Source: Holosporales bacterium (lineage in GTDB: Bacteria > Pseudomonadota > Alphaproteobacteria > UBA3830 > JAIRMZ01). From it: 49,542 nt of DNA. The stretch is from NCBI GenBank assembly GCA_031266655.1, contig JAISAP010000059.1, forward strand, positions 1 to 49,542, written 5' to 3'. Within the stretch, counting starts at the first letter, position 1. Each line of letters starts with the position of its first letter. Both the position numbers and the translations under genes were made by a program. Positions 13,763-41,548 of the stretch are shown here, in pieces. The notes below the pieces were generated by a model that had not been told where the DNA came from, did no database searches, and saw only the letters and a list, made by a program, of their open reading frames with translations.

Positions 13763-15100
13763 GTGAAAGCAACGCGCTTCCTCAAGAAGAGATTTCCAGA
13801 GACTCTGTATGGAAGAGCTCTGCTGATTCTTGTGACCCCCATGATTTTCATTCAGGGGATCTCCTCTTTTGTCTTTTTCGACCGCCATTGGGAAGCTGTT
13901 ATTCGGCGTACGGCTTTCTTGAAGACGCAAGAAATGGCCTCCCTTGCGGCCCTCATGCAGGAGGCCCCTCCCGAGAAAGCCATATCCCTTGTCCAAAGGG
14001 AGGCAGCGCGCTTTGGCTTGGGTGTGGCAATCCTTCCCCCTCAAGCTTCCCAAGAGCCTTCCACCCGAAAGCTGCATGCTGCGGGAGGGCTTCTCAAGAG
14101 ATCCCTGGATGCGGTTTTTGGACAAGCGTATTCTCTGGAGGAGACGCCCTCTACCTTCGTCGTTCAGGTTTTCTTCCCATCCTACGCGTTGCGCTTCTCT
14201 TTCCCTGTCAAATCTCTTGTCCACCGCACAAGCGATATTTTCATGATGTGGCTTATTGGAACCTCTATTCTTTTTACGTTCATCGCCTGGATCTTTATGC
14301 GCAACCAGATCAAACCCATTCGGGCCCTCGCCAGAGCGGCCGATCAGTTCGGACGCACGAGCTCGTTTGACCCCATGTGTCCGGGCGGAGCGCGGGAAGT
14401 GCGCAAGGCAGGGGAGGCTTTTAACGAAATGCAGGTGCGCATTAAGCATCACATTGAGCAGCGTACAGAGATGCTGGCGGGAGTTTCCCACGACCTGCGC
14501 ACACCCCTGACACGCATGCGTTTGCACCTAGAGCTCATCCCGGACAGCGCAAGTTCTCGGGCCTTGAAGCAGGATCTTGCCGAAATGGACGGGATGGTCG
14601 CGCATTTCTTGGATTACGTGCGAGAGGAGCATCTAGAAGGGGGAGAGCGGACGGCACTTGCGCCTGTCATCCGTAAGATCGTGCAGGACTATTTCATGCC
14701 TGCCCTCTCCTGCGACTTCCATTTAGAAGAGTCTATTGTCTGCACGGTGCGCCCTCAGGAATTCCGGCGCCTTTTGTCTAATTTGCTCTCCAACTGTCAG
14801 CAACAAGCACATCACGTGCGTATAAGTCTTGTCCAAGAGGGGGAAGACGTCGTCCTCACGGTTGAAGACGATGGTCCTGGCGTCCCAGAGCAACACAGAG
14901 AGGACATCTTCCGCCCTTTCTTTCGGTTGGACCCCTCCAGGACACCTGGAAAGGGGGGAAGTGGCTTGGGCCTCTCCATCGTGCAGGGTCTGGTGACCTC
15001 TATGAAAGGGACTATCGCCCTGGGGGAGTCGTCTCTTGGGGGACTCAGCGTCACCATCCGGTTCCCCATTTCTGGATTGCCCAATGAGCCTACGGCGTGA
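13763..15100 (+). CDS. EnvZ/RisS-like membrane sensor histidine kinase
   Basis: Two TM segments, HAMP domain, H-box SHDLRTPLTRM, VEDDGPG (G1), FRPFFRLD and GSGLGLSI (G2). Confidence 0.93.
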   Translation: MKATRFLKKRFPETLYGRALLILVTPMIFIQGISSFVFFDRHWEAVIRRTAFLKTQEMASLAALMQEAPPEKAISLVQREAARFGLGVAILPPQASQEPSTRKLHAAGGLLKRSLDAVFGQAYSLEETPSTFVVQVFFPSYALRFSFPVKSLVHRTSDIFMMWLIGTSILFTFIAWIFMRNQIKPIRALARAADQFGRTSSFDPMCPGGAREVRKAGEAFNEMQVRIKHHIEQRTEMLAGVSHDLRTPLTRMRLHLELIPDSASSRALKQDLAEMDGMVAHFLDYVREEHLEGGERTALAPVIRKIVQDYFMPALSCDFHLEESIVCTVRPQEFRRLLSNLLSNCQQQAHHVRISLVQEGEDVVLTVEDDGPGVPEQHREDIFRPFFRLDPSRTPGKGGSGLGLSIVQGLVTSMKGTIALGESSLGGLSVTIRFPISGLPNEPTA

Positions 15101-15143
15101 TACTGTGCCAGCGGATTTCCCTCTTAGAAAGGATGGGAGCGGA

Positions 15144-16134
15144 ATGCAGATGCTGAGAGACGTGGTGCGTAGAATGTGTGCCCAAATGCCTGGGTCTCTG
15201 GGGTACGTTGCTGCGCTGGTGTACAACAGCACGAGTCTGTATTCCCTAAAAAAGACTTTTCGGATGATCTCCGAACATCACCGTGATGGCCTTCTGGCGA
15301 GTGACTTCCGTTTTGGAAAAGCGATAGAGGACGGAACTTTTTCCGAGAGGATATTGGATTTTTATAGAGATGAGGAGTTGGATTGCTATAATTTCAACGG
15401 CGTTAAATTTCCTTTCCTAGATGGCAAGTCAGGGGGGGGGTGGATGTGACCTAGGCGCTCTTCGTTTAGTGTTTTTCGAGGTTTTCCTCGTTCACTGTCT
15501 CTATGGAGGAAATTACGACAAATTTCTGGTAAGCGCCTTGGGGAATCTCTGCGATAAAGGAGGCCCCTATGAGCTGGAAGACGGGGACTTTGACGTCCGT
15601 GTAAAGTCTGGAGATATCGTCATCGATGCAGGGGCCTGGTGTGGAGATTTTGGCGCTTATGCGGCTTTCAAGGGAGCGACAACCTATGCTTTTGAGATTG
15701 CCGAAGCGACCTTCAGACATCTGGAGGAAACAGCAGCCCTGAACGCAGGGAAGATCCTTCCTGTAAGAATGGGTCTTGGCAACTCTTGCAAGGAGATGAG
15801 GGTGTTCCACACAGGGAATCATGTGGGGGACCGGCTTGTCTCTTCTTCACCGAGTTCCGATGCCGGTGAAAAAGTAGAGGTGACGACGCTCGATGCGTTT
15901 GTTCAAGAGAAGAAGATTAAGAAGGTAGATTTTATCAAGGCAGATATCGAAGGGGTAGAACGCGATATGCTTGAGGGAGCTGCCTATGTTTTGAAGACAT
16001 TCGCTCCAAAATTAGCGATTTGCACGTACCACCTCCCGGATGATCCACAGGTCCTCAGAGACAGAATTCTCAGCGCGAACCCAAGGTACAAGATCGTCCA
16101 GATGCGGCATAAGCTGTACGCTTGCGTCTGCTAA
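15144..16134 (+). pseudogene. FkbM family methyltransferase, out of frame at a G9 tract (phase-variable candidate)
   Basis: Downstream frame has VIDAGAWCG, TTLDAF, DFIKADIEGVE and PKLAICTYH. The frame from ATG 15144 stops at 15449 just after G9 (15432-15440); G8 or G11 would fuse the two frames. Confidence 0.85.
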
Positions 16135-21682: not shown

Positions 21683-23120
21683 TCAAGGTGATAGTGGGCT
21701 GGGACCCATAGGAGGGGGAATGGCTGTGAAGGCTTCTTCGACGGATTCGTTAAGGGGGCCTTCGAAAGAAACGGTGTGCTCAAGGTCTGGCGTAGGGTCG
21801 AAGCTGAGCAAGGTCTCTGCCACACGGCGGAGATACGCTAGGACGTTCTCCTTGGTGACGCGATGCTTCCCCACCCTCATGGCCTTTAGGATATAGCGAG
21901 CGACTCCAATGCCGTAATGTCCAGCATCCATGTAATTCGCTGTGTTGCAAACGATTTCTGGTACATCGTCAAAGGCGTAAATATGGATGTTGGGGAAGTG
22001 CTCTACGGCATTGAGCAGATACAAAAGGCCTCCGATGTACGAGGTAAAAGATCCTTTGTTGGCCAGGCAGATTGCGCAATGAGGAGGGATGAAAAAATGG
22101 AAGGTAATGTCGGGACGTTTGGCTATGGTCTCAAGGAGATAATCGAACATCCTGGGTACGGTGTTAAACCGTGCATGAACGTCTGAAAGATCGTGCGTCT
22201 TGACGAACTCAGCTATTTCCAGAAGCTCAGGACGCGCCGCTTGTAATGTGTGAGAATACTGAGAGGTGGTAGAGCAAAAGGTACGGAAACGGCGTGTGTA
22301 GCAGTTAAAGCAGTACTCATATCCGCTGTCTTGTTCGGTTCCACGGAGTCTTTGGAAAAAATGTCCTCCCCACAGTTTCTTCTCGTCTCTTCCACTAAGC
22401 AGGTGTACTACTTTGACAATTTTTACGCAGGTTTCCTCTGACAAAGGAAGCATTTCAGCGAGTTTAAGATTAAAAATTTTCAGGGCCAGATTTTGTACGG
22501 ACCTATTCCTGAATAAACGAAGTTTTTTCTCACGATCTTCTCGAGAATTGCCAAATAGAAACGATGGAAATCTCCCTATTTGTCCCCACCCCCCCCCCCC
22601 CCTGGAAATTCATTTCCATTTTGACGGATTGAAAGAAATGACCATCCAAAGACTGCACGACGGTACGCAGGACCGGAGACTTTAGGACAATGTCATAAAT
22701 TTTTATCATTTCATCCCAGCCCATACCGCATAAACTCACGTTTATGGCGCGATCGAATCCTCCAAGCTGTTCTGCTTCCTGCCGCAGAATGTTGCCAGCC
22801 ATGGAAGTTCCAAAAATCATTGTACTTTTATCTTTCTTTCGGAAAAAATGTCTCTGGATGGATCCATAAGCAGCCATCCTCTCATCCCAGATAGCGTATA
22901 ACGGTATCTTCAAGGGCTGGTCGCTGAATATTTGAAGGGGATCGGCCCAGAAGGTGAGAATAAGGGGAAGAGAGGGATACACAAGGCAGCAGAAGATGAG
23001 AATCCGCGTATGGAATCTCGGGTACCGTGTTCCTTTCAGGGGTAGCAGTCTGCCAGGAAACCACCAACACGATGTTCGCGTCATAGGCGACAAACTCGCA
23101 CAGGGCGCGCAATGACGCAA
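21683..23120 (-). pseudogene. Membrane-anchored SGNH/DltD-like protein, out of frame at a G14 tract (phase-variable candidate; start uncertain, possibly 23084)
   Basis: The upstream ORF (TM helix, DPLQIF, IFGTSMAGN) and downstream ORF (FFIPP, NYMDAGHY) join if the C14 run at 22589-22602 is 13 or 16 long. The downstream frame is open from the tract (WGQIGRFPSFLFGNSRED...). Confidence 0.78.
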
Positions 23121-25755: not shown

Positions 25756-26697
25756 ATGAAAAAACAGGCAGCAACCACAAAACCGCTCGTGATTGTCGCA
25801 TACGACGCGGAGTGGCCTCGGTTTTTCCATGAGGAAGCCGAAAGAATCAAGGCTTTCATGGGAGAGACGGTTGCAGATCTTCATCATATCGGGTCTACGT
25901 CTGTTCCCGGCCTTTCTGCAAAACCGATCGTGGATATGCTCCTTGTCACGCGTGACCTTGAAGAGGCAAGGCAGCATCTGACCAGTAGTGAGCTGGGATA
26001 TCGGTACAAAGGCGAGTACAATTTGCCTCTGAGGGACTTGTACGGGAAAAGTGGACCGTGCGAGACTTATCTCCATGTTCACCAGGTTGGAAACCCCGAG
26101 ATAGCGTTGAATGTGCTGTTTAGGGATTTTTTGAGAGACCACCGTGATGCCCGCGAACACTATGAGCGTGCCAAGCTGGCCGCTAGCCAATCCAGCGGAG
26201 CCGGAGACAAGGTGGAAGCTGGGATAACACAGTATAACTTGAGGAAAAACGACAGTATTGTCTCTATCTTACGGAATACCGGTTTTGACAGTTTATGTGT
26301 GAGATTTGTGGCGCAGCATAGGGAACACGAGGCTTTTGAGCAGTTCAGGTCGGAGTTCTTCGAGCAAATAGGCGGAGGCGATCTGACAGAAGTTTCTGCG
26401 GAGAGCAAGAAATTTGTCTTGTATCAAGGAACGGAGATCATAGGATCTGCCGGATTGTCTGATGGAGGAGCTGGGAGAGCTTCTATAGATTTTGCGATCT
26501 CTGAGACGCCGGAAGGATTTCTAAGGCTGTTGCAAGTCATTGAGGCTTGGGTAATGCTGAGGATGCAGGCGGATAGTTTGTCCGCTGTCGCGTTGCAGGA
26601 GCAATCCGCACTCTACGTATCAGCCGGCTTTGTCGCCTTGCAGGGTGCTAGGGGTTCTGGGAAGGTGCCTGTATGGAAGAGAATCCTCAACGCTTGA
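25756..26697 (+). CDS. GrpB (UPF0157) family protein with C-terminal extension (possibly GNAT-like)
   Basis: YDAEWP..F..E, HIGSTSVPGLSAKPIVD, HVH, FRDFLR and YERAK; ATG 25756 follows AGGAAAGG. Confidence 0.85.
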   Translation: MKKQAATTKPLVIVAYDAEWPRFFHEEAERIKAFMGETVADLHHIGSTSVPGLSAKPIVDMLLVTRDLEEARQHLTSSELGYRYKGEYNLPLRDLYGKSGPCETYLHVHQVGNPEIALNVLFRDFLRDHRDAREHYERAKLAASQSSGAGDKVEAGITQYNLRKNDSIVSILRNTGFDSLCVRFVAQHREHEAFEQFRSEFFEQIGGGDLTEVSAESKKFVLYQGTEIIGSAGLSDGGAGRASIDFAISETPEGFLRLLQVIEAWVMLRMQADSLSAVALQEQSALYVSAGFVALQGARGSGKVPVWKRILNA

Positions 26698-26755
26698 CCT
26701 TTCTATCGGTTGATCTAGGGGGAGTCTTAATGTGCGCCTGCGCGAGCCTTTCCGC

Positions 26756-27710
26756 TTGATACAGGTGCACCCCTGGGGGTTCCAGCGTAAGACATGTGTA
26801 GATGTATCATCTGTTAGTGTAAGGGCATCTACTGACCCTATAATTTGCTGGAATGGAGCCGATACCGCTCTCTGTAGTTGCAGGTTGTACGTAAGGCGTA
26901 TGTAGGAGTATCCGTCTGGAAGCTTTTATACAAGGTGGTGTTGGTGTATGTGCTCCCTTAATACCAATGTATTCCTTGGAAGGTTATACGTAACGCTGGT
27001 GTAGGGACGTCATCAAGGCCCAGCGGCATTCAGCCGCGGCTGAAGGCGAACGAGGGTTCATAGGCTGTTGGAAAATGTTCTGCGTAGTTACTCTGAACTT
27101 GATACAGATCTCTACAGTTGAAGTTTGTACGTAACGCTGATTTAGGGTTATCGTCGCCTTTGTGACTTTATCAGACCAAAAAAAGGTGTCACAAAGGCCC
27201 CGCGTCCTCTTCTGTGGGATGCGGTTCTCCATACGCCTAATACAGGATATACCTTAAGAGTTTTTACGTAACGCTGGTGTAGAATAACCCGCTTCCACTT
27301 CGATACAAGTGTATTTTTCTAGAGTGCTAGCGTAACGTTGGTGTAGGATCATCTGCGTTGAAGTTTCGGGCACAAGATCTGTGTGGGTGTATCTACTACT
27401 TTGATACCAGTGTATTCCTGGAGGGTTCTAGCGTGACGCTGGTGTGAGTGCATCATTGCCCTTGCGACTGTAGGAATAAATAGAGTTCGCAAGGGCCCCA
27501 CAGCGGTTAGCTGCGGCTATTACGGACTTGGCACAAGAGTTTGCTTTGAAGTTTTTCCCGCAAGACTTATATCGGTGCATCCAGTATCTCAGTACAGAAC
27601 TCTGCAGTTGCAGGTTTTGCGTAACGTTGGTGTAGGAGTATCCACGCCCTCATGACCGCATGTAACAAGCAAGATTGGCATGAGGGCTCCTGCAGCATTG
27701 TGCCGTAGTT
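26756..27710 (+). repeat. Structured non-coding repeat array A (core motif + double hairpin)
   Basis: About 9 copies of RRYAC-N23/24-CGYRA-N6-TGTAG-like cores (starts ~26758, 26861, 26960, 27101, 27239, 27302, 27403, 27530, 27591) and 3 hairpin modules (27156-27198, 27458-27496, 27646-27687). Confidence 0.85.
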
Positions 27711-27887
27711 AAAGTGATAGAAAGGGGCAGTTTTCCCCTTGCCCTGCGTTGTTGAATCCTTCCGCAAGCTCTTTTGACTCCCCCCTTTGTCTTGCTGAGT
27801 CCCGCTACGATCTATGAAGGTACCTCTCCATTGTCTCTACACACTCGAAAGTTTCTCTCTGCAGCTCCTCTCTTTTGATATCGGCCA

Positions 27888-28083
27888 GTTCGGTGCGGCA
27901 TGCATTCTCTCTTTTCTGCGCCGTTCACAGCCCTTTTCTTTCTCCTTGCGACTTATTTTCTCCCAATATACACAGTATTTTTATTATTTCACCTCATTTG
28001 ACAATTTTATTTATTCTTTTTTAACCTATTGCGCATAATTTATTATCCAATACGATAGATTCGTGCAAAAAGGAAGAGAGAAG
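27888..28083 (+). promoter_or_regulatory. Conserved AT-rich upstream region of flgE-like copy 1
   Basis: Near-identical inverted copy at ~32877-33074. Contains TTGACA (27998; CTGACA in copy 2), TTAACC, CATAAT and a purine-rich RBS-like GGAAGAGAGAAG. Confidence 0.65.
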
Positions 28084-29938
28084 ATGTCTTTGTTTAATAC
28101 CATGGGAGTATCTGTAGCAGGATTCCGCGCACAAGCGAAGAGGATGGCTACGATAGCGGATAATGTCAGCAACAGTGACACGATGGGCTATAAGACGCGT
28201 TCAGTTGCCTTCACTCCCCAAATAAATGGCCGGGGGGGGGGGCAGCTCCTTAAATAAAGGAACTTCCAATAATTATCTTCCATTTATTGGCAATAATAAT
28301 TCTTCTTCCAATTCTAGCTACTCCAGCTCTGGCGTTTCTGCACATATGCTAATGCATCTCCAAGAGCAAGGAGAGCTACAGCGCACCGACCGTCCTCTAG
28401 ATCTTGCCGTAGACGGAGAGGGCTTACTCCTCGTTAAAGACAAAAGCGGAGCCCTCGGAGGTGCCAGGACAGGAACCTTCCATGTTACTAAAGAAGGGCT
28501 TATTCAAGACGCACAAGGCCTCACCCTCCAAGGCTGGCCTTTACTGCCAGAAGGAACCGCAGGATCTAGTTCTGCAAAAGCTGCTGCGACCCAGGCTGTC
28601 CAATCTGCTCCGCCCCCTTCCTCTGCTACTGCTGTAGGCTCTCTGGGAGACCTTGAAGACGTCCATCTCCTCCTTCCACCAGGAGAGGTCTCCGCCTCTA
28701 CCGCGAAGGCATCGCACCCTCATGAGTCCCGCTTTAGGGAAACAGGATTAACAATCCAAAAGCAAGATGATGGTCTGTACTCTCTCTGTAACTCCGAGAT
28801 CCAGGTGAACGGCTTTTACGAAAGTACTTATGCCCAGCACACCTTTGTGGACTCTCTCGGGAGTGAACGCGTAGTAGATATAAAAGTGCAGAAGCTTCCG
28901 CATCCATCTCCCTCCACGTCCTTTTTTCTTCAATCTTCCGGTCTTGATGCAGAACTTGTATTACGTGCCGATGGGGTCTTGCAATGCGAAGCGGGGTGCA
29001 CTTTTGACAATACCACCAAGCAGGTGACTGTTACCTTCCCTGATACCGGGGCAGAGTTAACGCTCGACATAAGCAACGTCCAAATGCCCATGGGGAGCTG
29101 TTCCCCTCCCACCTCTGAAGGTGTCTTCTCTTGGGACTTTCCCCCCATGATTCTTGAAAAGGGTACCTATCTTGTAGAACATATGCTCATTCTCGACCAT
29201 CATGACGTGTGGGGTATTTCCGGTATGGCTTTGCTGGTAAAAAAGAACGAGGATGGCTCCTTTGGGGGGACCCTCTATGAAGGGGACGTCCGTATAGATC
29301 TCCACTTCGATGACCATGGTTGGGTATCGAGTTATAAGTTCACGCATAACGGCAACAATGAAAGTGTAGGGATCGAACAGACCGGAGAGATCATAAAGGG
29401 GGTGAACTTCGGCAACGGCGCTACCACAATCGACATCGATTTGAGTGCCTTTCGGCTGATCAATAGGACGGGCTCCAATCTCGTCGTCAATGGAAACACC
29501 ATAAAGCCAGTCGACTCCTCTGGAGAGGATGAAACTGCCGGTGCCGTTTCTGGAGATGCTCTCTCAGGGAGCTCCCTCACTGCGGTTCCACCTCCACCTT
29601 CTTCTCTTTCTATCGACGAGAACGGCGTATTAAGTCGTCTTAAGGATAACGGAGACTGGGAGCCACTCTACCTCCTGACCTGCTGTCAGTTTGCAGCGAT
29701 GAACGCTGCAGAAGAACGTAATGGCGTCTACTACGCGACTCCCGCCTCAGGGGTTCTCCGAACTGGAGTCTCGGGGCAAGAAGGCATGGGGACGATCACT
29801 GCGGGCACTCTAGAACGCTCCACCACAGACCTCGCCCATGAACTCTCCGAAATGATCAAAGCCCAACACGCCTACGCTGCTAATACCAAAGTCCTCTCTA
29901 CCATCGACGATATGCTCACAGAGCTCGAGAGATTGTAG
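28084..29938 (+). pseudogene. flgE: Flagellar hook FlgE-like protein, copy 1, out of frame at G11 (phase-variable candidate)
   Basis: N-terminus MSLFNTMGVSVAGF...IADNVSNSDTMGYK; DLAVDGEG, RTGTF and LQGWP; C-terminus LERSTTDLAHELSEMIKAQHAYAANTKV. G11 at 28232-28242 leads to a stop at 28257; G10 or G13 restores the frame. Confidence 0.85.
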
Positions 29939-29957
29939 AGGAGAGGGGGGAGAACTC

Positions 29958-30870
29958 AGCAGCGCCACCTGTTGTGGAGCAACTGATACAGACTTAGTAG
30001 GAGCGTTTACGCTGAAGTTTTTCTTACAAGACGTACATCGGTGTGTTTGCTACCTTAATACAAGTGTGTTCCTCGAGAGTTCTAGCGTAACGTTGGTGTA
30101 GAGTTATCGTTAGCCTTTGTGCCCTTACTAAACTGGATTAATGTCACAAAGGCCCCGCGCCCTTTGTGGGGCGCGGTTATCTCATGAGCTCAGCACAAGC
30201 GTTTATGTTGAAGTTTTTCTTGCAAGATCTGTGCAGGCACGTCCGCCACCTTCATACAAGTGTCCTGCTAGGGACTCTAGCTTAATGTTGGTGTAGGGTC
30301 ACCGTCGCCCTTGCGTCCACTCAAGGTGGACAGGGTTCGCAAGGGCCGCTGCGGCATCATGGCGCGGCTACCATGGACTTAATACGGGTGTACCCCTCTG
30401 AAGTTTGAGTGCAAGGCCTACATCTATGTTCTTGCGCCAACTGAAAGTGAATACGATCCGCAAAGGCTCCGCGTCCCCTTCTATGGGGCGCGGTTATTAC
30501 GGATTCAGTATAGATGTTTATGCTGCGGCTTTGATCGTAGAACGTATATCGGAACGTCTACCACCTCCATACAAGTGCACTGCTAGGGATTCTAGCGTAA
30601 CGCTGGTGTAAAAGGAGCATTGCCCTCATGACCTTATTTTGTAGCAAAAGATGGCATGAGGGCCCTGCGCCCTTATAGGGCGCGGTCGAAAGTGAATGGA
30701 GCTCTACATACTTCTGACAAGTGCTCGGTGCAGCCACGTGGACCTCCATACAAGAGTACTTCTTCAGAGTTCTAGCGTAACGTTGGTGTAGGATTATCAT
30801 CGCCTTTGTGCCATGATCAATTCAAACAAAGCGCACAAAGACTCCGCGCCATCTATTATGGCGCGGTTCA
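29958..30870 (+). repeat. Structured non-coding repeat array B between the convergent flgE-like 3' ends
   Basis: Two core variants largely alternate (CGTAACGYTGGTGTA at 30086, 30596, 30776; TGAAGTTT..CAAG type at ~29996, 30192, 30381). Five double-hairpin modules at 30113, 30307, 30431, 30622 and 30802; full units are ~180-195 bp. Confidence 0.87.
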
Positions 30871-31053
30871 AGGGGTAGGAAGGGCCGTTCTTCTCTTTGT
30901 CCTGCGTTTCTGGACCTCTCCGCAAACTCTCCTAGTGCTCTCTTTGTCTTGCATTGCTGGACCTCTCCGCAAGCTCCCCTAACTCTTCCCTTTACCCCTT
31001 AACTCTCTTCCGTCACTTCTTTGCAACCCCCGCTCTCTACTTCCATCCACCCT

Positions 31054-32876
31054 CTACAATCTCTCGAGCTCTGTGAGCATATCGTCGAGGGTAGAGAGGA
31101 CTTTGGTATTAGCAGCGTAGGCGTGTTGGGCGCGGATCATGTCGGAGAGCTCATGGGCGAGGTTCGTGGTGGAGCGCTCCAGGGTGCCCGCAGTAATCGT
31201 TCCCATGCCGTCTTTTCCGGAGATTCCGGTTCGGAGGGCTCCTGAGGCGGGAGTCGCGTAGTAGACGCCATTGCGCTCCTCTGCAGAATTCATCGCGGCA
31301 AACTGACCGCAAGCGAGGAGATAAATGGGCTCCCAATCTCCGTTATCTTTAAGACGCTTCAATACGCCGTTCTCGTCAATGGAGAGAGAGGAAGGAGAAA
31401 CCATGGCGGAGGAAGCCTCCGATAGGGAGGCTCCAGAAGCAGTACGAGCGCTCCCAGCGTTTCCTGGGGAAACCTCTGGCTTGATGGTGGCTCCGTTAAC
31501 TACGAGAGCCGAATCTGTTCGGTTGACGATACGAAAAGCGCTGAAATCGATATGGATAGTGTCGTAGTCGGTGTCACTTTTGACAAAGTGTATCCCTTCC
31601 ACGACGGATCCAGTCTGTTCCGTCCCTACGCTTGGATCGTCGGTACTACCCCCGTTCTTCGTGAATTGATAGCCCGAAACCCAGCCGTCTGCATCAAAAT
31701 AAAGCTCCACGTCAAAGCCGTAGCTTTCATTATACAACTTCCCCGTGAAAGAACCGCCCTCATTCCTTTTTACCATCCATCGGATCTCGGGGGAGGATTC
31801 TAGGACTTGGGAGATTTTACAGGTCCCCTCCTCGAAGATCATGGGGAAAAAGTTCCAAGACAGGGTACCCCCAGAGGGAGGAAGAGAGTAGTGGGTTCCA
31901 CCGCTTGGGAGGTGGCTTATGTCGAGCGTTAGCTGCGCTTCAGTATCGGGGAAGGTCACCGTCATCTGCTTGGTGGCGTTATCAAAAGTGCAAAAGCTTA
32001 AATCGGCGCGGCTCTCGTCCGCCCAATATTCGCACACCGCGGTTTGGTGGAGGTCGGCAGATTTCAGGGTAGTGCGCGTACCATCAGAACACTGCCACAC
32101 ATCTATTTCGACGGTATGCTTGTTCCCGAGGGAGTCCACAAGGTTCTTCTGCAGGGTAAACGATTCGTAGAAGCCATCCGTGTGGGTTGTGGAGCTGTGA
32201 AAGGAGTACAGGCCGTCAACTTCCTTTTGTATGGTGGGGCCGGTTCCATAGGGGATGGACGCTTTCGCACTGGTTACTTCTGGCTTGATAAGTTGGATAT
32301 CCTCAAGGTCTCCCAAAGAGCCTGCAAAGGCAGCGGAAGGAGGTGGAGCAACCTTGGCTGTCTGAGCTGCAGCTGCTTCCGGCAGCAAGGGCCAGCCTTG
32401 GAGAGTAAGACCTTGTGCGTTTTGGATCAGCCCTTCTTTCGTAACTTGGAAAGTGCCTGTTCTCGCTCCTCCGAGGGTGCCGCTTTTGTCTCTAACCAGG
32501 AGTAAGCCCTCTCCGTCTACGGCAAGGTCTAAAGGCCGATCGGTGCGTTGTAGCTCTCCCTGTGCTTGGAGATGCATTAAAGTGTGCGCAGAGACCCCGG
32601 AGCTGGAGTAGAGAGATCTGGCACTGGAGGGGGAACCGGAACTCCCTATCAAAGAATTGGAAGAATTATTGTTGCCAATAGAGAGAAAGAAATCTCCTTT
32701 ACTTAAGGAACTTCCCCCCCCCCCCCCCGGCAATTTATTTGGGGAGTAAAGGCAAGTGATCGCACCTTATAGCCCATCGTGTCACTGTTGCTCACATTGT
32801 CCGCTATCGTAGCCATCCTCTTCGCCTGCGCGCGGAATCCAGCGACAGATACTCTCATGGTATTAAACAAGGACAT
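31054..32876 (-). pseudogene. flgE: Flagellar hook FlgE-like protein, copy 2, out of frame at G15 (phase-variable candidate)
   Basis: ATG at 32876 gives MSLFNTMRVSVAGFRAQAKRMATIADNVSNSDTMGYK...INCRGGGGEVP-stop. The C15 run is at 32714-32728; 13 or 16 would join the 559-aa downstream ORF that carries the FlgE C-terminal motif. Confidence 0.85.
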
Positions 32877-33074
32877 CTTCTCTCTTCCTGCATGTACGAA
32901 TCTATCGTATTGGATAATAAATTATGCGCAATAGGTTAAAAAAGAATAAATAAAATTGTCAGATGAGGTGAAATAATAAAAATACTGTGTATGTTAGGAG
33001 AAAATAAGGGCAGAAAGAAAAAAGAAAAGAGCTGTGAACGGCGCGGAAAAGAGAGAACGCATGCTGCATCGAAC
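32877..33074 (-). promoter_or_regulatory. Conserved AT-rich upstream region of flgE-like copy 2
   Basis: Inverted near-identical copy of 27888-28083. Confidence 0.65.
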
Positions 33075-33094
33075 CAGAAGGTGCCAAATGATGC

Positions 33095-33505
33095 CTCTAC
33101 ACCAGCGTTGCACAAAAAAACTTTGCAGTAGATTCCCGTCCTAGGTCTATAATGGCCGCGGCCCAATACCGCGGTGGCCCTATGCCATCCTTTCTGTTAT
33201 AGGTAGTCATGAGGGCGTGGACGCAATTACATAGGCCTTACGTATCACTTGCAACTGCAGATACCTGTATCGAGGCTGATAACCGCGCCACAATAAGTGG
33301 CGCAGGGCCTTTGTGACATAAATCCATTGCAAATATGGTCACAAAGGCGATGATGCCACTACAGACATCTTACGTACAACCTGCAACTACAGATATCTGT
33401 ATCGAGGTTGATAGTAACCGCGGTATGATGCCGCGGGGCCCTTGCGAAGTCTATTGACTACAGAACGCAAGGGCAATGGTCCCCCTACATCAGCGTTATG
33501 AAAAG
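33095..33505 (-). repeat. Structured non-coding repeat array C (inverted relative to A and B)
   Basis: Reverse-complement cores at ~33097-33142, 33226-33271, 33359-33403 and 33485-33499. Hairpins at 33177-33216, 33307-33348 and 33438-33474, each paired with a CCGCG-type hairpin; ~130-bp period. Confidence 0.85.
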
Positions 33506-33546
33506 AGCCCATGAATTCACCAAAACTCATGCAGTATGCTCGTCCC

Positions 33547-34029
33547 CTAAAAGCGGCGATCTTTTTCGCCTTTCAGGACTCCCCAGGTTTGCGAGCGGTG
33601 GAGCCATCCCGTGAGGCGCTCGACCTTCACGCGCAGCCAATCACCGCGGATCTCTTGAAGTTGCGCAGAAGTGCCCGGTTCAAGATAGGCTACAACCTGC
33701 GCATCTGCACTGGGTTTGTCCAGCAGAGAGTGTGTTTTCTCTATGACGAGAGCGCTTCTGCGCATAGTAAGCATGTTTTGGTGAATCCACCCCTCCTCGC
33801 CCTCCGCATCCTGGATTTTGCGCCAAATGCCGACTTCTGCGAGGACAATGAGGGGAATTCCAGAGCGCACGAATTTCCAAGACAAAGGGTACTGTCTTCC
33901 TGGTCCGACACGAACATTGGCCTCCTGCGCCCTCAGCGTGACTGCATACGGAAGAACCGGCGTGGTTTGTGCATACGTAACGGCGTCCCCTAACGCTAGC
34001 AGAAAGGCTATCCGTATCCTCAGACGCAT
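33547..34029 (-). CDS. Bacterial SH3 domain protein (two SH3-like repeats)
   Basis: Signal peptide; ANVRVGPG..YP, WRKIQDAEGEEGWIHQNML and GWLHRSQTWG. The ATG overlaps the dut stop. Confidence 0.88.
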   Translation of the reverse strand: MRLRIRIAFLLALGDAVTYAQTTPVLPYAVTLRAQEANVRVGPGRQYPLSWKFVRSGIPLIVLAEVGIWRKIQDAEGEEGWIHQNMLTMRRSALVIEKTHSLLDKPSADAQVVAYLEPGTSAQLQEIRGDWLRVKVERLTGWLHRSQTWGVLKGEKDRRF

Positions 34030-34466
34030 CAAGTTCCCGTCGATCCGAAGCCACCTGCTCCGCGTTGGGTTTCTGGAAGGACTGTGACACACTCAAAGGT
34101 CACAGACTCGTAACACGCAATCACCATCTGTGCGATGCGCATCTCGGGCTCGATCGTAAAAGGCTCAGATCCGAGGTTGATGAGGGCAACTTTGACCTCT
34201 CCTCTATAGTCGCTGTCAATGGTCCCAGGAGCGTTCAAGACAACGACTCCATGCTTCACCGACAACCCAGAGCGCGAGCGAACTTGCGCCTCGTATCCCG
34301 CGGGAATAGCAAGCGCGATGCCGCACCCAACCAGCACGCGTTCCTGAGGGCGCAGCACGATGGGCGCTTTAAGGGAGGCGTGGAGATCCATGCCTGCACT
34401 CCCGCTGGTTGCGTAAGTGGGAAGCGTGGCTTCTGGCGTTTGGAGAAGAATTTTTACGGTGAGCAT
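34029..34466 (-). CDS. dut: dUTP diphosphatase
   Basis: [30 protein letters not shown] and [10 protein letters not shown]. Confidence 0.97.
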
Positions 34467-35599
34467 GCAGCCTCCTTTTGGGTTCTTTGTATAGCCTTAC
34501 CCTGTGGGTCAAAAATATGACAACGAGCCGCCCGCACGAGAAGCGCGACTTCTTGACCGAGGGCATGTGGAACATCCTTTTTTGCTTGCCGAAGATTCAG
34601 AGTCGCCCCCCCTGGCAGGGTCACCCAAACATGCGTCTCGTTCCCCAAGTTTTCCACAAGGGATACCTTTCCGGAGAAAATCGCGCCATCCTCCGTAGAA
34701 GAAACCTCTTCCTTGATGTCCTCCGGGCGAATGCCAACGGTAATCGTCTCCCCCAACGAGAGGGACGGCTTTCGAGCAGAGAGTTCCGCGCGTGTGATAG
34801 GGATGGACAGGGTTTCTCCAGAATCAAAGCGCAGGACCAGATACTGGCTCTGGATCTTCTCCACGATCGCCTTGAGGAAATTCATCGTGGGCGAGCCAAT
34901 AAACCCGGCAACAAAAAGGTTCTCGGGGTGATGGTAAAGAGAAAGAGGCGTGCCTGCTTGCTCAATACGCCCATCGCGCATGACCACGATGGTGTCTGCA
35001 AGCGTCATCGCCTCGCTTTGATCGTGCGTGACATAGATCATCGTCGTTTTCAGCTCCGCCTTGAGGCGCGCAAGCTCATGGCGCATTTTCACGCGTAGTG
35101 CGGCATCAAGGTTGGAAAGAGGCTCGTCAAACAAAAAAATCTTCGGATGACGCACGATGGCGCGCCCGATCGCCACCCGCTGGCGCTGACCTCCGGAAAG
35201 CTCCTTGGGCTTGCGGTCCAGAAGGTGCTCGACATTGAGGGTTTTGGCGGCCTTGTGCACGCGTTGGGCAATATCCGTCTTGCTACACCCGGAAATTTTC
35301 AAGGCAAAGGCCATGTTGTCGAAGACGGTCATGTGCGGGTACAGGGCGTAGGATTGGAAAACCATGGCGATGCCGCGCTCCACAGGAGGCAGTGTGTTGA
35401 CGCATCGTCCATCGATGTGAACCTCTCCCGTTGTGGGTTCTTCCAAACCGCAGATAAGTCGCAGCAGCGTAGACTTGCCGCATCCTGAGGGACCCACCAG
35501 GACCGTACACGCGTTCCCGGAGAGCTCGAGATCAATGCCCGAGATAATCTGGTGGTCTCGAAAACTCTTGGTCACGTTTTTGAGCGCAATGGTCGACAT
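34454..35599 (-). CDS. Sugar ABC transporter ATP-binding protein (MalK/ThuK-like)
   Basis: [34 protein letters not shown] and DEPLSNLDA; TOBE-like C-terminus. Confidence 0.95.
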
Positions 35600-40519: not shown

Positions 40520-41548
40520 CTAACTCTCGCTCCGATGAACGTCCAACTCAGGCGGACGCGTCCAGCCCGGATTCAGCTGCTCAGCGGAGTATCTCTGCCC
40601 GTTCGGAAGAGTGATCTGCGCTCGAGAGCTTTCAGCGAAGGCCCACTGTTCAATTTCGTGAAGCCGAGAGTCTTGCTCGAAGGCAACGGAGTGTAAGCAC
40701 TCGCACCTGTGGAAACACTGCGTCTCAATCTTTTCTACGCTCGCGGGCAGTAGAATGAACTGTAGGCCAGACCAGGCAAAAACTTTCTTTTTAAGAATGC
40801 ACAGCTGAGAATTGGGCTCAAAGGTGACGGTGCCAAGCCATCGACACTCCAAGAAGCAGCCAACCGGGAGCGTTCTAAGAGTGTTGGGAATCTCCACATT
40901 TTTCAGAATGATAGTGCCTGCATAAACGCCACTACAAGGATTTGCTGATTGACCTCCGACATCGATTCCCCTGACACAGGACCAACCAAATACCAGAACC
41001 CCAAACTCTACTCCACGCGGGAGGCAGATGTGCCTGAAAGACGTCTTAACGAAGGCCCGATATTTAACCGACTCAAGCTGAGAACCTGGTTCAAAAGTAA
41101 CAGAGAGTAGCTGTAAGCAACCCTCGAAGCACTTCTCCCAAATCGTTTTCACGCTCGCGGGGATGCAAATGGAGCGCAAGGCAGAATCATGGAAGGCACT
41201 CGGTCCTATCCACTCAAGTCGAGAGCCGGCCTCGAAGGGAACGTGTTGAAGGAATTGGCACTCCTTCCAGCAATGCATGTCCAGCGTTTTTGCATCCCAG
41301 GAAATGACAACGTCCCGTGCTCTAGAGCAGGGGACGTTGCTCGCTCCCACATTGAATCCAGACTCAGAAAGAGATACGTATTCCCCTCGATAAGCAACTG
41401 CACTCCTGAAACAGGCGAACTCATCAAAGGTTTCTCCAAACAGCTCCGCTGCTTCCGGAAACCGTTTCATTGCCTCAGCCTTGCAAGGCCCGCCTAGCGA
41501 TCCTAAAACAAGCGCAGAGATTATTTCTAAAATCTTGCATTTCTTCAT
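40520..41548 (-). CDS. BspA-type leucine-rich repeat exported protein
   Basis: Signal peptide; repeated IPASVxxIxxxCFxxCxxLxSVxFExxSxL and AFxxSxL units. Confidence 0.9.
   Translation of the reverse strand: MKKCKILEIISALVLGSLGGPCKAEAMKRFPEAAELFGETFDEFACFRSAVAYRGEYVSLSESGFNVGASNVPCSRARDVVISWDAKTLDMHCWKECQFLQHVPFEAGSRLEWIGPSAFHDSALRSICIPASVKTIWEKCFEGCLQLLSVTFEPGSQLESVKYRAFVKTSFRHICLPRGVEFGVLVFGWSCVRGIDVGGQSANPCSGVYAGTIILKNVEIPNTLRTLPVGCFLECRWLGTVTFEPNSQLCILKKKVFAWSGLQFILLPASVEKIETQCFHRCECLHSVAFEQDSRLHEIEQWAFAESSRAQITLPNGQRYSAEQLNPGWTRPPELDVHRSES

Follow-up and report, generated by a model that had tools for sequence, protein, structure and literature searches.

The window analysed here, the whole of a 49,542-nt stretch of DNA from a Holosporales bacterium (GenBank assembly GCA_031266655.1, contig JAISAP010000059.1, forward strand), is contig C57 of a genome of 1,290,566 bases assembled in 80 contigs and 92.69% complete. 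It carries two genes, copies A and B, which face each other across a spacer and encode proteins of the type of the flagellar hook subunit FlgE, each split close to its 5' end by a run of G. An initial annotation, made from the sequence by itself, took them for an isolated pair acting as a two-gene cassette for antigenic variation; as described below, they are two of at least 26 dispersed members of a family, and the unit of variation appears to be the family as a whole. The parts of the two copies, and the blocks that they share in inverted orientation, are as follows.

27871..28083, + strand: conserved 5' region of copy A (delimited by the inverted-repeat arms and an alignment of 18 family upstream regions)
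28084..28257, + strand: N-terminal frame of copy A, Flg_bb_rod/D0 helix (PF00460, E 1.6e-7)
28232..28242, + strand: poly-G tract of copy A, 11 G as assembled
28226..29938, + strand: body of copy A, a 570-codon open frame shifted by one base
29939..31053, no strand: spacer of ~1.1 kb between the facing 3' ends, with short dispersed REP-like repeats
31054..32733, - strand: body of copy B, a 559-codon open frame with the layout of copy A
32714..32728, - strand: poly-G tract of copy B (C on the + strand), 15 as assembled
32703..32876, - strand: N-terminal frame of copy B (PF00460, E 3.1e-8)
32877..33091, - strand: conserved 5' region of copy B
27952-28242 / 32718-33008: inverted repeat of upstream DNA, N-terminal codons and tract, 291 nt, 93% identity
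27871-27947 / 33015-33091: inverted repeat farther upstream, 77 nt, 81%
28308-28562 / 32367-32621: inverted repeat of the D1 block, 255 nt, 83%
29597-29941 / 31051-31395: inverted repeat of the C-terminus, 345 nt, 87%

The copies are constructed alike. The short frame of copy A begins at an ATG at 28084, preceded by a Shine-Dalgarno-like AAGGA/GAGAG, and consists of 48 conserved codons (encoding MSLFNTMGVSVAGFRAQAKRMATIADNVSNSDTMGYKTRSVAFTPQIN), the tract, and an out-of-frame tail that ends with TAA at 28255-28257; that of copy B begins at an ATG at 32876 and runs through 48 conserved codons, tract and out-of-frame tail to TAA at 32705-32703. The body of copy A then presents, in order, a Ser-rich linker, a D1 block, an all-beta variable middle (residues ~172-430) and a C-terminal D1/D0 region. 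As assembled, both copies are out of frame across the tract, so that the genes are split, a feature that the initial annotation had missed. The shared upstream region pointed out in the initial annotation is real but longer than the ~190 bp given there, extending to ~213 nt on the evidence of the inverted-repeat arms; the shared N- and C-terminal blocks and the common position of the tract, also pointed out there, correspond to the inverted blocks of 93% and 87% and to a tract at the same codon. Protein identity between A and B is 63% over the long open reading frames (ORFs) as a whole and 48% over the ~300 residues of the middles (residues 136-455 of A), which bears out the divergence ascribed to this part.

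The stretch matches a single sequencing run, X1, a termite gut metagenome, with no RNA run among the matches listed. Contigs built separately from X1 span both unique middles without mismatch (28435-29749; 31257-32547), as well as the junctions of each 3' end with the spacer. Because the middles differ and the X1 contigs cover both of them, the pair is not the assembly artefact that the initial annotation had allowed for.

The last ~75 nt before the ATG form a block found throughout the family, TTTATTTAC..TTTAT.AAC.TAT..., which is common also to a copy that lacks the tract. A scan for sigma-70-type promoters returned sites no more often than in shuffled sequence, and none on the sense strand upstream of copy A or B; no consistent sigma-54 (GG-N10-GC) or sigma-28 motif was apparent by eye in the aligned family upstream regions, and no Rfam family was found at 26000-34500. 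Dense, dispersed short repeats flank and separate the two copies (26850-27700, 29990-30870, 33190-33500). One REP-like core motif, CGTAACGYTGGTGTA, occurs in the spacer at 30086, 30596 and 30776, and seven times in the window; genome-wide it has 54 copies, of which 28 fall in the 9.1% of the genome that is no more than 1.5 kb away from a family gene.

Assignment of the proteins to the FlgE/F/G family is supported by the general model TIGR03506, which scores 118 bits with A and 131 bits with B (cut-off 70.25). PF00460 (Flg_bb_rod) recognizes the N-terminal pieces (31.6 and 33.9 bits for A and B, against 20.7) and PF06429 (Flg_bbr_C) the long frames (45.8 and 46.1 bits, against 23), the latter also scoring 25.1 and 26.5 bits with PF22692 (FlgE/F/G D1), just below its cut-off of 27. 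The models for FlgE proper (the equivalogs NF004243, NF004242 and NF040922) are not reached: the best, NF004243, gives 140 bits vs 801 and covers only the ends, and NF004242 gives 134-135 bits vs 365. The surroundings too are not those of FlgE proper, since FlgD is on another contig, a FliK domain and FlgK were not found, and a Pfam scan of 40 other ORFs in the window revealed no flagellar family. Within the window, then, the genes are indeed isolated, as first annotated; the genome at large holds dozens of copies.

In a search of PDB sequences with the family profile, FlgE of Campylobacter (5jxl) came first (E 1.1e-19). In the family proteins the tract is followed by a low-complexity linker rich in Ser, which takes up ~100 residues in most copies and is short in A and B. 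Beyond it lie the conserved D1 block, a stretch rich in Gly, Ser, Thr and Pro, and the motif PPPSAAFIGPLGALEDIQLIKPE; the variable middle comes next, and after it a stretch rich in Pro and Glu and the conserved C-terminus. AlphaFold2, run on an alignment of 22 members, predicts an all-beta middle with confidence (residues ~172-430, pLDDT 70-95); the middle modelled by itself has pLDDT 73.8 and pTM 0.71. All four fold searches with these models placed an outer domain or a fragment of FlgE in the top row. With the full model, VIA-align found D-II of Pseudomonas FlgE (9wx3_A, Z 5.6, root-mean-square deviation 4.0, 115 residues aligned) and D2 of Treponema FlgE (6ndt_B, Z 5.6); with the middle alone, 9wx3_A fell on the first half and 6ndt_B on the second, both at Z 4.2. 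Foldseek gave a fragment of Caulobacter FlgE (5ay6_A) as the top match of both models, with E 2.9e-3 and 2.0e-3. The predictions are consistent with a middle composed of two D2-like outer domains. Taken with the domain assignments and the conserved ends, the sequence evidence supports FlgE-type axial proteins with polymerising ends and divergent middles, the character that the initial annotation had given to A and B.

TIGR03506 found 81 matches in the genome, spread over many contigs. With the N-terminal piece of copy A, tblastn returned 27 matches, namely 26 family members and the canonical flgE; with the C-terminal piece it returned 36, namely 33 family members, the canonical flgE, flgG and a chimera. 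Twenty-six family frames are at least 500 codons long, and 25 of these reach a common C-terminus, ...DDMLTELERL. Since many contigs begin or end inside family genes, copy number is uncertain, and is probably higher than counted. On contig C2 a gene of 442-452 codons fits the TIGR03506 model over its whole length and, in a quick maximum-likelihood tree, clusters with the 440- and 456-aa FlgE proteins of relatives (support 92); by these comparisons it is the canonical hook gene, separate from the family. In the same tree, to which long-branch warnings apply, the 25 long family members together with P0007, a protein from outside the assembly, form a clade of their own (support 100), whose sister is an intact 525-aa protein of a relative (support 94), and A and B are sisters (support 92). 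Convergent pairs of family genes recur on four contigs (C57, C23, C6, C75), most copies being tandem or single, and the members of the C23 pair, like A and B, are close relatives in the tree; local inverted duplication is therefore a real mode of growth of the family.

Beyond this genome the family fades quickly. Four other genomes of the same taxonomic family have 5-11 FlgE/F/G matches each, vs 81 here, and no G/C run of 9 or more was present in the nine FlgE/F/G loci fetched from genomes of that family; a search of 36 genomes from other families of the order with the A protein found nothing. A profile of the variable middle identified 13 proteins among 1.84 billion representatives, and as nine of them come from this very genome, the family is essentially private to this lineage. 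Among named genome contigs there was one relative, with 34% identity over the C-terminal 208 residues. A protein-profile scan of public metagenome contigs gave 64 pattern matches, none of which was confirmed as a relative, and a metagenome contig picked up by the DNA pattern of the tract context proved a chance match with no FlgE-like frame.

Two unusual members deserve separate mention. At C68:15149-16987 there is an intact 612-codon member with a short linker and no G tract, next to a tract-bearing copy in tandem; it is possibly an always-on member. A 527-codon frame at C49:28859-30439 joins a signal-peptide-like start and BspA-type leucine-rich repeats (LRR) to a shortened, degenerate version of the family D1 and C-terminus, and looks like a recombination product of the two families that are expanded in this genome.

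The tract is a feature of the family at large. A run of G10-G16 stands at the same codon (after codon 48-49) in 21 copies, in the context AAATAAATTGCC-Gn-CAGCTCC, or AAATAAATTGCC-Gn-CAGCTCCGTTAAG, and encodes a short stretch of glycine. The commonest lengths are 14 G (seven copies) and 13 G (six); 15, 11 and 10 G are found in two copies each, and 12 and 16 G in one each. Reading of the codons shows that the N-terminal piece is joined to the body by 12 or 15 G in most copies. In copies A and B one base has been lost just after the tract, which shifts the joining lengths: A connects its 48 codons to a 564-codon body at 10, 13 or 16 G, and B does so at 13 or 16 G. The copy at C30:7789, which groups with A and B by its 5' region, carries a different insertion after the tract. 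Two paralogues are without the tract, the intact 612-aa member on C68 and an N-terminus cut off by a contig end at C61:7185. At the position of the tract the related 525-aa homologue (P0009) reads ...VKVRGGDATG..., and because of this RGG we think that the tract probably grew out of two glycine codons.

As assembled, none of the 21 tract-bearing copies encodes an uninterrupted protein. In 16 of them the body is open from tract to stop over 552-765 codons (three of these being N-terminally cut by a contig end), and a change in tract length would suffice to restore the frame; two are cut short by the end of their contigs, and three carry a single additional lesion each. The last are a C61 copy (15 G), in frame at the tract and stopped 13 codons later; a C65 copy (12 G), in frame at the tract and frameshifted ~60 codons later; and C23:14967 (16 G), out of frame and with a stop just after the tract. 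Two marks of a repeat-contingency gene, a repeat inside the reading frame and, as the codons are read, a length change that would switch between full-length and truncated products, are thus present, in keeping with the role of switch that the initial annotation had given to the poly-G: tract length sets whether the 48 codons and the body are read as one.

One length differs between assemblies: the tract of copy B is 15 G long in the window but 13 G, an in-frame number, in a 224-nt X1 contig that is otherwise free of mismatches. Another X1 contig has one extra G at the tract of A, and may belong to a paralogue, this stretch being conserved family-wide. Runs of G/C of 15-29 nt stand beside family genes at the contig ends C75:4832-4886, C17:21-81 and C21:14529-14552; they are probably places where the assembler broke at the tract, or poly-G read artefacts, and their lengths are not to be trusted. 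Since assembly breaks at family tracts, copy numbers and tract states taken from assembled genomes of this kind will be underestimates.

Comparison of nonsynonymous and synonymous divergence (dN/dS) by domain, as the initial annotation had proposed, separates the ends from the middle. Pairwise Nei-Gojobori estimates, those for the N-terminus being medians over 18 complete copies, were as follows.

N-terminal 48 codons: median dN/dS 0.10, dS 0.53, open in 18/18 complete copies
D1 block: median dN/dS 0.08, dS 0.95
Middle, first and second halves: median dN/dS 0.33 and 0.30, dS saturated (1.43, 1.59)
C-terminal 111 codons: median dN/dS 0.06, dS 0.83
A vs B, N-terminus: dN 0.037, dS 0.35
A vs B, D1: dN 0.046, dS 0.83
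A vs B, middle: dN 0.42-0.46, dS 1.0-1.5
A vs B, C-terminus: dN 0.064, dS 0.48

The ends are under strong purifying selection (0.06-0.10) and the middles evolve faster (0.30-0.33); no region has dN/dS above 1 as a sign of positive selection. In eight of the ten closest family pairs the dS of the middle is at least 0.49 and its dN/dS 0.25-0.62. With dS of 0.35-1.5 between them, A and B are old paralogues and not the result of recent duplication; the likeness of their ends reflects constraint on the protein and no recent copying. That the short N-terminal piece has been kept protein-coding would be puzzling if it were never joined to the body, and selection of this kind marks the family genes as functional rather than decaying, as far as sequence comparison can tell. 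A test for mosaicism had little power: the nearest neighbour differs between regions in 25/25 copies, the ends being uniformly 83-88% identical. The C-terminus of copy B is 93% identical to that of C34:722, where ~87% is typical, and this likeness may be a conversion tract.

The flagellar genes of this organism form a peculiar set. Profile searches found FliF, FliG, FliM, FliN, FlhA, FlhF, FlgF, FlgG, FlgA, FlgH and FlgD, and the hook gene family is the largest expansion seen among them. Flagellin_N, Flagellin_C, FliD_C, the FliK domain and MotB_plug were not found in the genome, and nothing approached the cut-off for FlgK, the best score being 41.8 bits vs 170.75, on FlgG. Flagellin was likewise found in none of the four other genomes of the same family, of which two are at least 90% complete. 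There is one MotA/ExbB-family gene here and one in each of six relatives; because the latter include two from families without flagellar genes, the gene is probably TolQ. A sigma-54 activator is encoded inside the fliF-flhA cluster, with RpoN elsewhere (C45:10785-12125 and C49:42067-42549). RpoN is found here and in 4/4 genomes of the same family but in 0/2 from non-flagellar families, which suggests that sigma-54 is kept for flagellar genes.

From the gene anatomy, the frame logic, the family, its pattern of selection and this gene inventory, we infer tract variation, export, stacking and some purpose for the variation, and propose the following scheme. Probably, although by no means assuredly, the genes are a contingency family, switched by slipped-strand mispairing, that encodes polymerising hook subunits whose outer domains vary, borne on an apparatus without flagellin or motor. 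In every copy a conserved 5' region and a ribosome-binding site precede the 48 N-terminal codons and the G run. Slipped-strand mispairing during replication would add G's to the run or remove them, and only some of the resulting lengths would join the N-terminal D0 helix, as export signal, to the body; each copy would then go on and off independently and reversibly, and at any time a cell would make a small and changing subset of the family. A variant could be selected without inversion, since every copy comes with a promoter-like 5' region and a tract of its own. The proteins switched on would retain the D0/D1 parts for export by the flagellar type III system and for stacking into a hook-like tube, whereas their outer beta domains, differing from copy to copy, would vary the exposed surface. 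Since flagellin, junction, cap, ruler and stator appear to be missing, a non-rotating apparatus would end outward in the hook or in an uncontrolled polyhook, and the suggestion in the initial annotation that the hook protein has been repurposed sits well with a genome in which flagellin, FlgK, FliD, FliK and stator were not found. Its term antigenic holds less well: adhesion to the host, evasion of host recognition and evasion of phage are all candidate purposes, and the host is probably a protist or the termite gut rather than an antibody-making animal.

A bolder extension, which we put forward tentatively and consider doubtful as it stands, is a non-rotating display organelle: a polyhook drawn from a library of ~30 FlgE paralogues by means of their own poly-G tracts, its composition differing from cell to cell. 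Sugar-modifying enzymes, phase-variable in their turn, may decorate its Ser-rich linkers. Such an organelle would put the flagellar export machine to a new use and be the first counterpart of pilin or Opa variation to be based on the hook.

Several observations weigh against slipped-strand switching of a polymerising hook family. Tracts in frame number 2/21, short of the one third that chance would give (P = 0.013), and both of these copies are otherwise broken, so that no copy is demonstrably expressible as assembled; the low count could mean that most copies are off in most cells, that the product arises by polymerase slippage, or that lengths are biased. Short reads measure G10-G16 poorly, which makes on/off calls for single copies unreliable. 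The 15 vs 13 G of copy B may reflect assembler choice or homopolymer error, and is a weak hint at most, and X1 may be the source of the window itself and not an independent sample. MutS and MutL are encoded in the genome, and slippage rates may be lower for it. On the side of the protein, the D0/D1 ends of the model have pLDDT <50, leaving polymerisation to be argued from sequence conservation alone, and the structural matches to FlgE outer domains are weak (Z <6), not clear of unrelated rows and below the advised level of trust. The absences from the flagellar set are provisional at 92.7% completeness and 80 contigs, and the FliK and MotB models can miss divergent proteins.

Polymerase slippage at homopolymers is known to rescue frameshifted genes in endosymbionts, and expression might here dispense with switching in the DNA, RNA polymerase slippage or ribosomal frameshifting on the G run yielding a broad, low-level product. 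Purifying selection on copies nearly all of which are out of frame would then make sense; bidirectional slippage could rescue 13-G and 14-G tracts, both of them common, and MutS and MutL would damp any switching in the DNA. These two lengths need opposite shifts, however, a point against a single programmed ribosomal frameshift; the best-known cases of transcriptional slippage are at A/T runs, and tracts of G10-G16 would be unstable in DNA anyway, giving DNA switching alongside; we regard expression by slippage as unlikely. If on the contrary the recorded lengths are measurement noise, the genes truly being in frame with 12 or 15 G and forming a constitutive multigene family with a glycine linker, then random error should leave about a third of them in frame, not 2/21, and the lengths should not cluster at 13 and 14. 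Bad measurement of such runs in short reads, the two lengths of copy B in two assemblies and the implausible G/C runs of 23-29 nt in which several contigs end all speak for noise; similar tracts recur in other surface and glycan genes, and even truly in-frame runs of this length would be hypermutable, so that the explanation collapses into phase variation. We think it very unlikely. Relics of lost motility, broken at a mutation-prone tract and now decaying, would be expected in a reduced genome apparently devoid of filament and motor, and would account for the failure of all 21 copies to read through, the extra lesions in three (C61, C65, C23:14967), the fragments at C15, C1 and C75 and the degenerate LRR-FlgE chimera on C49. 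Neutral decay over such divergence would have brought stops, whereas 16 bodies of 552-765 codons are open, 18/18 complete N-terminal pieces are open, the ends have dN/dS of 0.06-0.10 at dS of 0.5-0.95, and the break is always at one reversible site. Pseudogene decay is accordingly the explanation to which we give hardly any credence.

In the cassette originally envisaged, homologous recombination between the inverted homologies would invert the segment or exchange the middles and be the main source of variation. Inverted repeats of 255-345 nt at 83-93% identity would be suited to this, convergent pairs exist on C57, C23, C6 and C75, those of C57 and C23 between close relatives, and the C-termini of copy B and C34:722 (93% vs ~87%) offer a possible conversion tract. 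X1 contigs contain no joint that changes strand, although being shorter than the 255-345-nt repeats they have little power to reveal one; no recombinase, integrase or transposase domain was found among 40 window ORFs (E <=1e-5; ten ORFs had no family); dS is as high in the ends as in the middle, with no sign of frequent homogenisation; and most copies are tandem or single, each with a switch of its own. That recombination of this kind is the principal source of variation seems highly improbable. The same switch might instead serve another job, the proteins being exported as free effectors or adhesins and not polymerised into a hook. Flagellar export systems lacking flagellin and motor are kept in symbionts and, according to the accessible part of a study of Buchnera, are discussed as secretion devices (PMC8109811); the present genome has moreover expanded its BspA-type LRR proteins. 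An export substrate would need the N-terminus only, however, and the most constrained parts are D1 and the C-terminal D0 helix (dN/dS 0.06-0.08), which are needed for stacking and not for export. Secretion of free proteins appears improbable to us.

Comparison with known systems shows which elements of the proposed hook-subunit family are familiar. In Neisseria the opa genes are dispersed surface-protein genes, each switched by a pentanucleotide repeat in the 5' part of its coding region. The resemblance lies in a set of paralogues that keep their structural parts constant, vary the exposed ones and bear, gene by gene, an intragenic repeat close to the 5' end, an arrangement suited to changing combinations; the Opa proteins are outer-membrane beta-barrels whose switching has been demonstrated, whereas the present proteins are axial subunits with a mononucleotide repeat and are known from sequence alone. 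Salmonella alternates its flagellins FliC and FljB by Hin inversion. There too an exposed flagellar subunit alternates and the assembly parts stay constant, but two flagellin genes and site-specific inversion of a promoter stand in place of dozens of hook-protein genes and the in-gene slippage proposed here. FlgE of Campylobacter jejuni (5jxl) and FlgE2 of Helicobacter pylori (5npy) resemble the family proteins in having extra outer beta domains beyond D2; these bacteria have one or two tract-free hook genes with a normal filament and motor, and in sequence only the ends match.

Campylobacter jejuni is also the closest parallel to the tracts. As far as the accessible part of a survey of its poly-G/C loci goes, these (the maf1 group and other genes of flagellar glycosylation among them) likewise place a frame-setting G/C homopolymer inside the gene at many loci of a small genome, and are biased toward transferases and flagellum-linked surface structures (PMC8355987): most phase-variable groups are transferases, and the flagellum is acted on by several groups (PMC8355987). 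In that organism, to judge from the same portion of the survey, the switched genes modify or regulate the flagellum, and flgE is mentioned only as the neighbour of a phase-variable gene (PMC8355987), whereas here it is the structural hook-type subunit that has been multiplied, to at least 26 copies, and that bears the tract; the tracts here, mostly 13-14, are longer than those in Campylobacter. The survey, in the part available, describes C. jejuni as without functional mismatch repair (PMC8355987), in contrast to the MutS and MutL of this genome. Buchnera aphidicola is similar as a reduced symbiont genome that keeps basal-body, export and hook genes; fliC, motA and motB have been lost, which the accessible part of the study reads as a shift away from motility (PMC8109811). 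From the same part of that study, Buchnera has a single flgE, often lost, with no variable family or tract, as opposed to a family of at least 26.

In the literature searched, neither a hook-protein family with many genes or with poly-G tracts nor homopolymer switching in Holosporales turned up. A recent review on this order, in its accessible part, describes uncharacterised termite-gut clades and one member in which flagella have been seen, and does not mention a family of this kind. Homopolymer phase variation and multigene surface families are already known; new are their use with a hook subunit, the scale and the flagellin-less setting. Were the switched hook-subunit family borne out, the hook could be the business end of a flagellar apparatus, and the organism would be a testable case of a symbiont that re-uses flagellar export for a variable surface structure. 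It would point, further, to a poly-G-switched repertoire of hook subunits, LRR proteins and sugar-modifying enzymes in a lineage for which none has been described.

The source of the genome is probably a Holosporales-related symbiont from the termite gut, and its use of G/C tracts is general. Runs of G/C of at least 12 number 40, vs 0.24 expected from base composition, whereas A/T runs of at least 9 number 4, vs 4.2 expected. Among the 69 G/C runs of at least 9 are the 21 family tracts and a few more that fall inside family copies where these meet contig ends. Tracts also occur within, or at the beginning of, genes for BspA-type LRR proteins, FkbM and TylF methyltransferases, a family-2 glycosyltransferase, which adjoins the flagellar cluster, and a Myb-like DNA-binding protein; the runs of 9-24 nt that concern LRR, TylF, glycosyltransferase and Myb-like genes are at C79:7368, C21:14529, C31:30758, C63:18089, C18:5454, C39:2465, C22:11651 and C60:4144. 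On contig C9 the frame of an FkbM gene contains a run of 9 G and is closely preceded by one of 13 C.

Two more loci of this kind are in the window itself. At 15036-16134 (+ strand) a G9 run (15432-15440) splits a 137-codon frame, to which Pfam assigns nothing, from a 237-codon FkbM-type methyltransferase frame that is shifted by one base relative to it, and this is probably another tract-switched gene. At 21686-23120 (- strand) a G14 run (C14 at 22589-22602 on the + strand) splits a frame of 172-196 codons from one of 256-301 codons, without a Pfam match, making a candidate switched gene of unassigned kind. The window also includes, at 40523-41548 (- strand), a gene of the BspA-type LRR class (LRR_5, E 2.1e-30).

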